Part shown: one piece after another, positions 48,309-60,252 of the stretch | How positions within the stretch are numbered: the stretch's first letter is position 1 | How the letters are laid out: every line of letters starts with the position of its first letter | Assembly (NCBI GenBank): GCA_964016885.1 | Contig: OZ024743.1 | Span: 201,996,001 to 202,060,000 of the forward strand | Source: Eledone cirrhosa | Lineage: Eukaryota | DNA: 64,000 nt | Reading direction: 5' to 3' | Notes under the pieces: model-generated | What the model was told of the DNA's origin: nothing | Database searches by the model: none | The model's input: the letters and a program-made list of their open reading frames with translations, nothing else | Program-made: the position numbers and the translations under genes

Positions 48309-49068
48309 CATGTTGCTTGTTTCTTCCTATCTTTGCGTTGCTATCAATCCTTCTTGTTTGTTTACTTGTCTCGCCCGATTTACGCGATTTACTTGTCCCA
48401 ATAGCTTTATTTAGCTATTGCTCGCACCAACCGGAGGTATATGATTTTTAAAGCGATGAATTATCCAATGAAGGTTGGAAAATCACTGACGAAGGACTAT
48501 TTTTATCATATGTAACCCATGTGCAACCAAGCAGTATTCTTTTTTCTCATGATTTTTCTATATATTTACCTCGGCTGCGTTTGTCTGTTTCTCTCTTACT
48601 GCTTCCCCGCTCTCTCTGTTTCTCTCACTTTCTTTCGCCCCCTCTGTCAGTTACACTTTCTCTCGACTGGCCACTTCCACTCACTCACTCTCTGTTTCTC
48701 CCCTTCTCACTTCCTCCCGTTTGGCCTGTGTGGGTTCTCTTCTTGCTCACATCTCACTCACGTCGGATGGTCTGTATCCAGCCCGCTCATGAAATCCAGC
48801 CAGCTTAAGCTGACCGGATAACCATGTTGCTTGTTTTTTCCTATCTTTGCGTTGCTATCAATCCTTCTTGTTTGTTTACTTGTCTCGCCCGCTTTACACG
48901 ATTTACTTGTCCCAATAGCTTTATTTAGCTATTGCTCGAACCAACCGGAGGTATATGATTTTTAAAGCGATGGATTACCAATGAAGGTTGGAAAATCACT
49001 GACGAAGGACTATTTTTATCATATGTAACCCATGTGCAACCACGCAGTATTCTTTCTTCTCATGATTT
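48309..49068 (+). mobile_element. Non-coding 1.5-mer element with ~245-bp direct repeats (period 514), family R
   Basis: 48309-48555 repeats at 48823-49068, flanked by microsatellites. Confidence 0.85.
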
Positions 49069-49829
49069 CTCTCTCTCTCTCTCTCTCTCTCTCTCTCTCT
49101 CTCTCTCTATATATATATATATATATATATATATATATATATATATATATATATATATGTATATGTGTATATATATATATATATATATATATATATATAT
49201 ATATATATGTATATGTATATGTATATGTATATGTATATATATATATATATATATATATATATATATATATATATATATATATATGTGTGTGTGTATATAT
49301 GTATATATATATATATATATATATATATGTATATGCATATATATATATATATGTATATGTATATATATATATATATATATATATGTATATGTATATCTAT
49401 ATATATATATATGTATATGTATATTTATATATATATATATATATATATACTGCTATACCTTTAAGTTGCCATCTCATGTGCATTGATACATTTTAGTTCA
49501 GTTCCACGTGTTTACCAACTTGTGAGTACATTTTCCTTTAACTACAAATTATTATATACTTTCGTCTTTTCATTAATTTCATTAATTTCAAACAACCAAT
49601 AACCAGAATATATTTATATATATTTACTTATATTTATATATACACTTCTCACTCACACACAAGAAAAACAAATATCAAGAAAAAATAATATATTGAAATA
49701 CTTAAGTAAAACACACACACACACACACACACACACACACACACACACACACACACACACACACACACACACACACACACACACACACATACACACACAC
49801 ATACACACACACACACACATACACTCAAA

Positions 49830-52800
49830 ACTAGAATGGCTAACCAGCAAAAATCCAACAGAACCGGTCTGATAATGAAATCGACATTCTAATAAACACA
49901 TGGCATTGCCTTACCCAAACAGAAGACATAGATGCTTCATGTCTGAACGAAATTGCTAAACGTACAGTTCACCTTTCGAAAACCTGATCTGAACAACAGA
50001 TTCAAAATAAATTAAAGCAAATCGAAGTTGCTTTTAAATTAATCAATAAACATTTGGATAAACTACGGTGTGTTTTTTCTTCGGACGTTATCCAGCAGCA
50101 GCAACAGCAGCAACAACAACAGCAGCAACAACGGCAACAACAACAACAGCTACAACAACAACAGCAACAACAACCACAACAACAGCAACAGCAGCAACAA
50201 CAATAACAGCAACAACAACAACGACAAGAACAACAACACCAGTGTGAACCACTCCTTGATTCATCAACAATGGCCGATCTACTAAATGAAACTATTGACC
50301 TCCCAGTAGCCACTGTCTCACAGCAGGAAACGCCACTTCCTTTCTCTGCCCCAGCAGTCCAATCATCACCACTGCCAACATCTCCTCTGCCTACTACTAC
50401 TACTACTACTACTACTACTACTACTACTACTACTACTACTACTACTACTACTACTACTAATAATAATAATAATAATAATACTACTACTAATACTATTACT
50501 ACTACTACTATTACTACTACTACTACTACTACTACTACTACTACTACTACTATTACTACTACTACTACTACTACTACTACTACTACTACTACTACTACTA
50601 CTACTACTACTACTACATCTTTGCCTACTGCTATCTCAAGGAATTTACCTCCTAATACCAGTACAAGAACTCTCCCTCCCACAGTCCACAAAGGTCGTCA
50701 AAACGTACTCCAACTATCATCTACACCTCTCACAACACATACACACCCAATCGAAACCCCATCATTTGCCGCTACTCTCTACGCTATAGAATATGTACGG
50801 ATAGTGGCTGCAAATTCATCCTGGGACAAAACGGTCTATCCCCACTAACAACAGCCACCACCATAATACATAGTATAATTTAACAGCAACACAACCACCA
50901 ATAACCCAAACAAGGAATCCACAAATCTGCCGCTTTTCCGAGCGAGACAGATTGTGTTTACACCAGGATTGTCCCTTTACCCATCTCCCGCGGATTCGTC
51001 GAACAAATGAAAATAAAAATAAAAATAAAAATAAAAATAAAAATAAAAATAAAAATAAAAATAAAAATAAAAATAAAAATAAAAATAAAAATAAAAATAA
51101 AAATAAAAATAAAAATAAAAATAAAAATAAAAATAAAAATAAAAATAAAAATAAAAATAAAAATAAAAATAAAAATAAAAATAAAAATAAAAATAAAAAT
51201 AAAAATAAAAATAAAAATAAAAGCAAAAACAAAAACCATAAACTACATAAAAATAACCACTACCACAGTTACCAACAGTCCCCTAAAGAGGAAACTTCTC
51301 CCTCTTTTTTAGCCATAATGAATCTGGCAAAAGAACTGGAAAAAAAACATTCGAGCTATCACCCAGCACCACCCTCCACTATCACCCCTCTGCACACACT
51401 CCCATTGCTGCCATTAACAAACAAACAAATTAACAACACACCAAAACAATTAAAACCATCCACTCTCGCCTCAACATTTTTGCTTAACGCCCATGTCATC
51501 AGCCCTTCCACCAGTACTCAAAAATGGAAGATCAAATTCCTGGAGGACTGGCTTGATGTCCATCCAAACCACATCCCCTTTTTCGTCCTCACTGAAACCC
51601 ATCTCAGTAACCTCCACTTGGAAGCCGAGGTGAAAGTGAAAAATTTCAAAGCCATCCGTGCTGATCGCGCTGGCAGAAGAAAGGGTGGGACTGCCATTTA
51701 TGTCCATAATTCTTTCTCAACAGAGTCTATGAACATATCTTCTAATGGATGCTGCGAAGCAGTCACTGTATTCAGTCAAATCAACAACCTAATAGTAGTT
51801 GGGCTCTATAGGCTACCCCAAACGCCTCTGCCATGCTTCAAGGAATGCCTCATCAGCATAAAGTGTTTCATCCAAGAGTGTCACCCTGACAACATCTTAA
51901 TGATGGGGGACTTCAACCTCCCTGGAGTTGACTGGTCCACAAACAGCCTGCCACCAGGTTCTTCTGCCTCAACCTCTGACAGGGAAGCAGTGGAATCACT
52001 TCTTGACTTCATGGATGATTTCTTCCTGTCCCAACTGGTGCTCGAACCAACAAGGTGCCACAAAAACGTCCTAGACTTAATTTTTAGCAATCACACTGAC
52101 AGTATCCACAATATTGCAGTGGAGAAAACTCTACTCTCTGATCATGACATGGTTCTCTGTGATCTGAGATTTCACCGTCCAATATACAAACCCAATGTCA
52201 TCTCTCCTGTCCATCCGTTTGACGCTATGGATTTCCACAATGCAAACTGGGAAGCGATCAGTCATGATCTTGCACATGTCGACTGGTCCTTCACGCACAC
52301 TCACACACCCACTAACATCAAAAAGTCCTGTCAGACATTTGTGGACACTGTTACAAACATATGTGCAAAACACACCCCATTAAGAACTATAAACAAATCT
52401 AAGAGCAGAATCCCTAGAAATAGAAAAACGCTCATCAGGAAAATTAAGAGAACTAACAAAAAAATCAACAAGCTGAAATAGAGTAAGCAGCAACACATCA
52501 ACTTGACTGCCATTTCATCACTAGAGATTAAAAAACATACCTCCAAAATAATGTGATGTCTATCATCAACAATCAGAGAAGAGCTGAAGAGGCCTGGGCC
52601 ATTGAGAAGATCAAACTCAATCCCAAAGTGTTCTTTTCATTTGCAAATAAACACAAAATCACTGGCTCTACTGTTGACCCTCTAATTGATGAAAATGGCA
52701 CCCTTCCAGACAATGCTAAAACCATGGGTGAGATACTGCAGAAACAATACTGCTCTGTTTTCAGCAATCCTGATATGGCCGATCTGGGCTGTATCGGCAA

Positions 52801-59003: not shown

Positions 59004-59382
59004 TATATATATATACATACATATACATACATATATATATATATATATATATATATATATATATATATATATATATATATATATATATATATATATATAT
59101 ATATATATAAATATATATATATATATATATACATATACATATACATATATATATATATATATATATATATATATATATATATATATATATATATATATAT
59201 ATATATATATATATATAAATATATATTTATGTATATATACATATACATATATATATATATATATATATAAATATATATATATATATACATATACATATAC
59301 ACACATATATATATATATATATATATATATATATATATATATATATATATATATATATATATATATATATATATATATATAT

Positions 59383-60252
59383 AGGAATGAAAAATGGCGT
59401 GCTGTGTTGTTGCGAATGTGATACATATGAAGTAAAAATTAGAAAGTTGAAGTGAATCACTGACTTGATTTTCTCATCGTTTCCTCTCTTTACGTTGCCT
59501 CACCATTCTTATTTGTTCACCTGTCTCTCTTTCTCCGCCCAATTCTTTTTATCCCAATAACCGAAATGAGTTATTGTTCGCGCTAGCGGGAGGTATCTGA
59601 TCTTTAATGCGAAGAAATACCTATTATGGCTAGGAGATCACTGATGATGGATAGTCCCGGCTTCTCTTTCTAATTTTTACTTCATATGTATCACATTCGC
59701 AACAAAACACAGCACGCCATTTTTCATTCTCATTTGCTTTTCCCAACGCTGTGACCTGTCTTTTTCTCTTCCCTTACTGCTATCATCTTTCTCTGTCCCC
59801 CTTCTCTCTCCTTCTCCTTCTTACCTTGATTCTCCCCCTCTGTTGCTCACCCTCTCTCGGCTAGCCCCTTCCTCATATTTTCACTCACTCACTCTCTGCT
59901 ACTCACCCTCTCTCACTTCCTCCAACGTCCGGCACCGTACGAAATTCTTTTCTCGCTCACTGTTCGCACGGTACGGATGGTCTTTCGTCTTCTTGTCAAT
60001 GTTCGCAAGTTCTTATGTTCAAATGAAACAATGACTTGATTTTTCTCATTTTCTTCTCTCTTTACGTTGCGTCACCATTCCTGTTTGTTCACCTGTCTCT
60101 CTTTCTCCACCCAATTCTTTTTATCCCAACAACCTACTTTAGTTATTGTTCGCGCTAGCGGGTGGTATCTGATTTTTAATGCGAATAAATACCTATCATG
60201 GATAGTAGATCACTGATGATGGATAGTCTCGGCTTCTCTTTCTATTGTTTAC
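59383..60252 (+). mobile_element. Family R relative: ~215-bp direct repeats (period ~571) plus a 5' inverted segment
   Basis: 59461-59682 repeats at 60032-60252. 59385-59445 is the inverse of 59667-59729. TA runs flank both sides. Confidence 0.85.

Follow-up and report, generated by a model that had tools for sequence, protein, structure and literature searches.

Non-coding Penelope-like repeats of Eledone cirrhosa carry a complete hammerhead core in permuted order and are likely to self-cleave

Introduction

Hammerhead ribozymes whose conserved blocks follow one another, 5' to 3', as cleavage site, GAAA and CUGANGA were found in environmental sequence by Eckert 2023, who named this non-circular permutation type SGC. 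According to the accessible part of that paper, published SGC ribozymes cut during transcription, and non-circularly permuted hammerheads have been reported almost only from metatranscriptomes and metagenomes, without a known host or role (PMC10085705). Naiads, which are Penelope-like elements (PLEs), are described in the available portion of PMC8557442 as being without a canonical hammerhead, some of them being marked HHR_core or HHR_half_core. Here we analysed a 64,000-nt stretch of the Eledone cirrhosa genome (assembly GCA_964016885.1, contig OZ024743.1, positions 201,996,001 to 202,060,000; hereafter the window), in which two non-coding repeats contain four copies of one structured RNA motif. 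We estimate a probability of about 0.75 that this motif is a complete but permuted hammerhead core, likely the self-cleaving RNA of a non-autonomous Penelope-like repeat that likely derives from a Naiad 3' end.

Metazoan non-LTR (long terminal repeat) retrozymes are, like the repeats described here, non-autonomous tandems of a few hundred nucleotides with one hammerhead per unit and a link to the pseudo-LTR (pLTR) of PLEs. In contrast to our repeats they were defined and searched for by type I hammerheads, as far as the accessible part of the preprint goes (bioRxiv 10.64898/2026.07.22.740005), so that a permuted form would go undetected. The accessible text of PMC13725137 cites Eckert and says nothing further on the permuted form, and we found no description of the present hammerhead form in print, in a survey that left subscription journals mostly outside its coverage.

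A complete core in permuted order

An earlier reading of the window by a model, made from the letters alone (the original prediction), had reported four copies of a covarying RNA with CUGANGA but without GAAA, in two 1.5-mer elements. All four copies are present where it had placed them (Table 1), in two repeats with units of 514 and 572 nt, the second of which is a 1.4-mer. GAAA, however, is there: its place is 23 nt upstream of CUGANGA, within the loop of stem I, and it is intact in copy 3 and mutated in copies 1, 2 and 4. The four window copies, on which the first reading was based, are decayed, and three of them have lost a core letter exactly there.

We searched the 3.0-Gb genome with the motifs of both elements, which gave 1,692 and 1,912 candidates, 40 of which were scored for each, and collected by BLAST 71 distinct copies, the window copies included (28 of subfamily 1 and 43 of subfamily 2). 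GAAA stood at its position in 25 of 28 and 40 of 43 copies, respectively (65/71 overall), and CUGANGA was intact in 64 of the 71; subfamily 1 copies were 97-100% alike across the motif. GAAA-UACC and a conserved GGUA-U-H before stem I pair with each other to form stem III, leaving a normal NUH site, and an NUH triplet occupies the predicted site in all seven subfamily majorities defined below. The strands therefore run, 5' to 3', as cleavage site, GAAA and CUGANGA, whereas the arrangement of types I, II and III (GAAA after stem II, circular order C-G-S) was found in none of the 71 copies.

These counts bear on the idea that the motif represents a new GAAA-less ribozyme class or a type I hammerhead from which GAAA was deleted, which had been the original prediction's own alternatives. 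Three of the four window copies do lack GAAA, and in subfamily 2 CUGAUGA is followed by a short gga-tag-tcc hairpin. GAAA was nevertheless upstream of CUGANGA in the 65 copies above and within 30 nt downstream of it in 0 of 71, stem III covaries, and the hairpin is absent from subfamily 1; we consider both versions refuted. What stands of the original prediction is an atypical, hammerhead-related RNA in retrozyme-like repeats; what falls is its GAAA-less core, as the core is full and permuted.

A pattern with GAAA before CUGAYGA, applied with the subfamilies of the window excluded, matched the genome 1,665 times compared with 317 times for a reversed control, and a second such pattern, with the same exclusion, matched 150 times compared with 12; more distant subfamilies were recovered in this way. 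One 15-mer from the core region had 7,514 exact matches in the genome, and its control had one. Among sequencing runs, no RNA run was listed as containing the motif; three contig sets of one sequenced sample contained many motif variants and gave no information about cleavage. In metagenomes the pattern search returned two matches, both without the helices, and in viral sequence it returned none. The Rfam comparison that had been proposed with the original prediction found no ribozyme family matching either element at E values up to 10, and for the whole window no ribozyme was among the 150 of 405 matches listed. HDV (hepatitis delta virus)-like, twister, pistol, hatchet, hairpin and box C/D RNAs were considered and rejected, as their consensus strand orders do not fit and neither element had an Rfam ribozyme match.

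Covariation supports the fold

To build the alignment we took 128 local matches with the 23-nt spacing and removed 31 singletons and 3 rows with indels, leaving 94 copies, in which seven rows with a shorter linker were given two gaps. Seven subfamilies of at least three members hold 67 of the 94. We scanned six subfamily majorities, 37-81% identical, for helices without reference to the model; the seventh majority carries an insertion. The scan returned five helices, four of which were the predicted helix C (4 bp), helix D (6 bp), stem III (5 bp) and stem I (3 bp contiguous), the remaining one being an unpredicted helix of 3 bp. Three helices of at least 4 bp were observed compared with a mean of 0.044 and a maximum of 1 in 500 column shuffles, which for helices of at least 3 bp gave a mean of 0.76 and a maximum of 7. 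Copy by copy (n = 94), the paired cells were 316/376 for C, 493/564 for D, 411/470 for stem III and 496/564 for stem I, that is 84-88% compared with 16-48% for slid partners, and stems I and III had two to three pair types per column. Within the limits of sequence comparison, these data establish stem III (GGUA-U with A-UACC), stem I, the core letters and the scaffold helices C and D, and clamp helix A can be read from the alignments only. The fold as a whole is very probably as described. Single-sequence folding gave z scores of -2.1 to +1.0 and is uninformative for a pseudoknot.

Most of the helices of the original prediction were real, including the closing helix (tgtcc/ggac and tatcc/ggata), the hairpin caatagc/gctattg, the third helix (stem I, tgattt/aaatca and tgatct/agatca) followed by CUGAYGA, and the proposed tcgc/gcga pseudoknot, which is helix C and covaries in distant subfamilies (GCGC/GCGC, GTGC/GCAC). 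The hairpin ccaat/gttgg and ctatc/gatag was not conserved, with 139/235 cells paired in the window's own cluster and 48/115, 17/65 and 8/35 in other clusters. The true partner of one of its strands lies upstream (ccaacc/ggttgg and ctagcc/ggctag), where 273 of 282 cells are paired.

A putative split stem II in a variant of type SGC

From 5' to 3' the motif consists of clamp strand A, hairpin B, strand C, strand D, the k-turn (kink-turn) strand, stem III, NUH and stem I, followed by a linker with a conserved UAA, C', GAAA, stem III, a bulge with GA, D', stem I, CUGANGA, N10.1 and A'; hairpin B is absent at its usual place in some distant subfamilies. Canonical stem II is reduced to one pair, present in 72 of 94 copies and of four types (UA, AU, GU, GC). 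Where it fails (A.C, 12 rows), the base preceding GAAA can pair upstream, and the strand before GAAA itself pairs upstream as helix C. We infer that a single pair of stem II is prolonged by helix C, whose other strand comes from the 5' end of the motif, and that helix D, often through a k-turn, ties stem I, stem II and stem III together at their far ends and would replace the usual contact between loops I and II. The kink-turn consensus is a 3-nt bulge followed by tandem G.A and A.G pairs. This pattern was full in three of the seven majorities, both window subfamilies among them, and the other majorities had an A.U variant (two) or a Watson-Crick or other loop (two). A k-turn beside the core could make cleavage controllable by a protein of the L7Ae family.

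In the accessible part of PMC10085705, type SGC ribozymes (HRIMA-1 and the SGC variants) share with our motif the S-G-C block order and the whole set of core letters. In both, stems I and III covary, the stem II strand follows stem I after a short linker, and an additional helix connects stems I and II; the published 'I' helix, judging from the text of that source, would correspond to helix D. The published stem II, however, is a helix between the strands beside GAAA and CUGANGA, of which at most one pair exists here. Also unlike type SGC, the stem II junction takes its partner strand from 5' of the cleavage site, as the tying helix does one of its strands; both are clamped by helix A, with or without hairpin B, and some subfamilies have a k-turn-like loop after stem III. 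With the SGC order but no canonical stem II, the motif is, on its sequence, a variant of the type SGC hammerhead.

Minimal Penelope hammerheads, with a stem II of about 1 bp, cleave as dimers or in trans. The short stem II of our motif thus invites the idea that its strands pair between two RNA units rather than in one intramolecular multi-pseudoknot; the units do lie in tandem, and minimum free energy folds of single strands do not give the model, by a method that cannot predict pseudoknots. We regard pairing between units as very improbable, since the linker of 4-5 nt from stem I to helix C and the kink after stem III would suit an intramolecular route, and published SGC ribozymes cut during transcription (PMC10085705, accessible part).

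The host repeats resemble Penelope-like insertions, and the fold can be read by eye at several Naiad 3' ends

The repeats are non-coding and 5'-truncated. They usually end about 117 nt past the predicted cut, adjoining (TA)n, or sometimes at an earlier TA-like site; tandems reach four units, and an inverted copy is often present. They thus combine the features of non-autonomous Penelope-like elements or retrozymes: absence of coding sequence, 5' truncation, partial tandems, inverted copies and a microsatellite target. PLEs have the same insertion traits, with (TA)n as the target of Naiads (PMC8557442, available portion). Element 1 of the window is flanked by (TA)n on one side and by (TC)n/(TA)n tracts on the other, and its tail, adjoining (TA)n, is likely an internal priming site. 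Element 2 is preceded by an inverted copy of its 3' end, as in Penelope-like insertions. Among tandem units, identity within an insertion (0.88-1.00) exceeded that of the best outside match in only one of nine pairs.

We then read by eye the last 300-400 nt of 31 Naiad consensi in the supplement of PMC8557442 and recognized the same fold at seven 3' ends (Obim, Ovul, Amil, Aacu, Anas, Bfor and Naiad-3_Chem), from Naiads of three phyla. Naiad_Obim and Ovul have stem I as CTGCCC/GGGCAG, a GUA site, the k-turn and a hairpin B loop like that of the family; Amil, Aacu and Anas have stem I as TAGGAT/ATCCTA and helix C as GGCTCC/GGAGCC, without a k-turn; and Bfor has a short stem I. According to the accessible part of the same paper, Naiads resemble the repeats in their (TA)n target, partial tandems and inverted, 5'-truncated copies and differ from them in that the repeats in this genome are non-coding. 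In the same supplement, the Naiad-1_Movir end has a stretch like the twister loop consensus, which suggests another ribozyme class in some Naiads, and several Naiad ends from bivalves have another conserved motif in common.

No autonomous Naiad with a matching 3' end was present in the loci fetched, and no genome-wide search for Naiad proteins was made. A motif scan of the loci for Naiad-like reverse transcriptase (RT) found nothing, and neither the PLE fragments, which are common there, nor proteins like those of HERO and other restriction-like endonuclease (RLE) elements were colinear upstream of the motif. A same-strand hit lay within 1,500 nt of 11 of 198 motif-like matches, none of them placing a family motif in the 3' untranslated region. 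Pfam returned no family for 12 PLE-like fragments. A young-looking and very abundant RLE-type LINE (long interspersed nuclear element; L231-L238, for example G000:C2:279164700-279172000) with 40,084 candidates and intact frames of 1,174 aa has a short tail that adjoins (ATAC)n-like repeats, and it lacks the family motif. Four further groups of repeats have GAAA before CUGAUGA: in L157 and L133 the stems I and III of this wiring can be recognized, and L138/L147/L186-L188 and L132/L145/L185 are too decayed to judge.

It is worth considering that the ribozyme is as described but that its mobilizer is a HERO/RLE LINE or some other PLE that targets (TA)n (Hydra, Neptune). The available portion of PMC8557442 describes cephalopod Naiads as old remnants, yet subfamily 1 copies are nearly identical across the motif, and fragments of other PLEs are common in the loci. 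Against this, the abundant RLE family just described has a short tail and no family motif, inverted and partial-tandem copies are PLE traits (PMC8557442, same portion), and the resemblance between the family and the octopus Naiad ends extends to the hairpin B loop and the k-turn. We thus regard a non-Naiad mobilizer as unlikely, and the repeats probably originated from a Naiad.

5' ends of insertions drop at the predicted cut

We next asked where insertions begin by counting junctions to (TA)3 on the reverse strand, for which listings have one row per locus. Junctions fell at -2 to +12 of the predicted cut for 351 of 3,765 anchors (9.3%), at about +13 to +27 for 25 of 430 (5.8%) and at -28 to -14 for only 15 of 2,041 (0.7%), so that 5' ends were 8-13 times commoner just downstream of the cut than just upstream. 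Among 30 loci picked by their 3' part, of which two may be duplicates, seven start at -4 to +20, 14 between -55 and -339 and two at the unit start, and seven extend beyond one unit. In the first 40 loci of the 15-mer list, 4 of 52 anchors (three insertions) start at +1 to +12, and one locus, L309, has a fold-back centred on the predicted cut. This distribution fits templates whose 5' end is the cut.

Most copies nevertheless run through the site (23 of 30 loci; 48 of 52 anchors), and therefore uncut or circular RNA would be the main template. In the mechanism that we favour, cleavage after NUH would divide transcripts of tandem units into RNAs of unit length; an RT-endonuclease of Penelope type, supplied in trans, would nick (TA)n and prime about 117 nt downstream of the cut; and the complementary DNA (cDNA) would either halt at the cut 5' end, giving short copies, or run through uncut or circularized RNA, giving copies of one to four units.

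Besides this read-through, several points weigh against the interpretation as a self-cleaving RNA of Naiad origin. The 5'-end signal is a step without a sharp peak, the three junction anchors span different subfamily sets, TA microhomology can inflate the middle window, and RT stalling could contribute. Canonical stem II is absent past its first pair (25, 7, 34 and 56 of 94). In the subfamilies found by pattern, the conservation of GAAA and CUGAYGA follows from the search itself, and mutual information on single copies was weak, with only 5 of the 25 top column pairs predicted, because it is swamped by copy relatedness. The fold was absent from the stretch displayed for 24 of the 31 Naiad ends, and the loci examined have no RT gene, of a Naiad or otherwise, upstream of the motif. 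Finally, insertion of the Poseidon element PAc in vitro did not require cleavage by its hammerhead (PMC11167929, accessible part).

Some of these points would also suit a hammerhead-derived scaffold that serves RT recognition or priming, in which cutting is unneeded or protein-assisted and 5' ends arise from RT stalling in the knot. Read-through by most copies agrees with such a scaffold, as do a 5'-end excess that spans about +1 to +27 rather than one position and the PAc hammerhead, which is protein-assisted as well as dispensable (PMC11167929, same part). Against a scaffold stand the retention of all core letters and NUH in subfamilies as divergent as those scanned above and in Naiads of three phyla, and a drop in 5' ends that coincides with the predicted cut. 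We therefore consider a non-cutting scaffold improbable, and self-cleavage by intact copies appears quite probable.

With somewhat less confidence we favour a broader interpretation, in which the motif adds another natural way of wiring a hammerhead. The SGC circle would be opened inside stem II, with a 5' scaffold strand completing stem II and bracketing the core through a k-turn, and the result would be an overlooked ribozyme of many Naiads, from ctenophores to cephalopods, that makes unit-length and possibly circular templates from their RNA and from that of thousands of derived repeats. A permuted hammerhead would then exist in thousands of copies within an animal genome, its split stem II lying outside the published block model. 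This would bear on why Naiads seemed to be without the hammerhead that other PLEs carry, and would imply that an entire class of retrozymes escapes type I descriptors.

Features of the window

Table 1. Coordinates of the two host elements and their predicted ribozyme copies, counted from the first nucleotide of the window
Feature	Position	Strand	Remarks
Element 1	48304..49065	+	non-coding 1.5-mer, 514-nt unit, subfamily 1, 5'-truncated; ends approximate
Ribozyme copy 1	48394..48497	+	
Copy 1 clamp helix A	48395-98/48494-97	+	
Copy 1 hairpin B	48399-48420	+	
Copy 1 surrogate stem II	48422-25/48453-56	+	
Copy 1 helix D	48427-32/48473-78	+	
Copy 1 k-turn-like loop	48433-35/48467-72	+	
Copy 1 stem III	48436-40 with 48461-66	+	
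Copy 1 predicted cut	48441^48442	+	
Copy 1 stem I	48442-47/48480-85	+	
Copy 1 GAAA position	48458-61	+	GAAT (mutated), with 1-nt insertion
Copy 1 CUGACGA	48486-92	+	
Ribozyme copy 2	48908..49010	+	one strand of the surrogate stem II reads TCGA instead of TCGC
Copy 2 predicted cut	48955^48956	+	
Copy 2 GAAA position	48972-75	+	GGAT (mutated)
Copy 2 CUGACGA	48999-49005	+	
Element 1 tail	49006..49065	+	stops at the family's usual 3' end, about 117 nt past the predicted cut
Inverted copy of 3' end of element 2 unit	59385..59445	-	matches 59666-59729
Element 2	59446..60250	+	non-coding 1.4-mer, 572-nt unit, subfamily 2; ends approximate
Ribozyme copy 3	59550..59653	+	sole window copy with complete core; mutations at the k-turn G (59625) and in one helix D pair
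Copy 3 stem III	59592-96/59617-21	+	
Copy 3 predicted cut	59597^59598	+	AUC
Copy 3 stem I	59598-603/59635-40	+	
Copy 3 GAAA	59614-17	+	
Copy 3 CUGAUGA	59641-47	+	
Ribozyme copy 4	60122..60225	+	k-turn positions and helix D damaged
Copy 4 predicted cut	60169^60170	+	
Copy 4 GAAA position	60186-89	+	TAAA (mutated)
Copy 4 CUGAUGA	60213-19	+	

Between the two elements lie a broken LINE (50874-54350, plus strand) with endonuclease-like and RT-like frames, as read from the translations, and a broken Penelope-like element (54960-59000, minus strand) with RT fragments at 55390-57117 and a DKS motif recognized by eye. The latter has direct terminal repeats near 54960-55070 and 58870-59000, is separate from the motif family described here, and contains in its 58870-59000 repeat a stretch that by eye resembles a degenerate type I hammerhead. 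Elsewhere in the window, a satellite of about 12 near-identical units of 472-476 nt occupies 21188-27109, with an inversion at about 22282, and Rfam matched two transfer RNAs on the minus strand, at 62386-62458 (64.1 bits; GAA anticodon by eye) and at 42614-42685 (44.3 bits).

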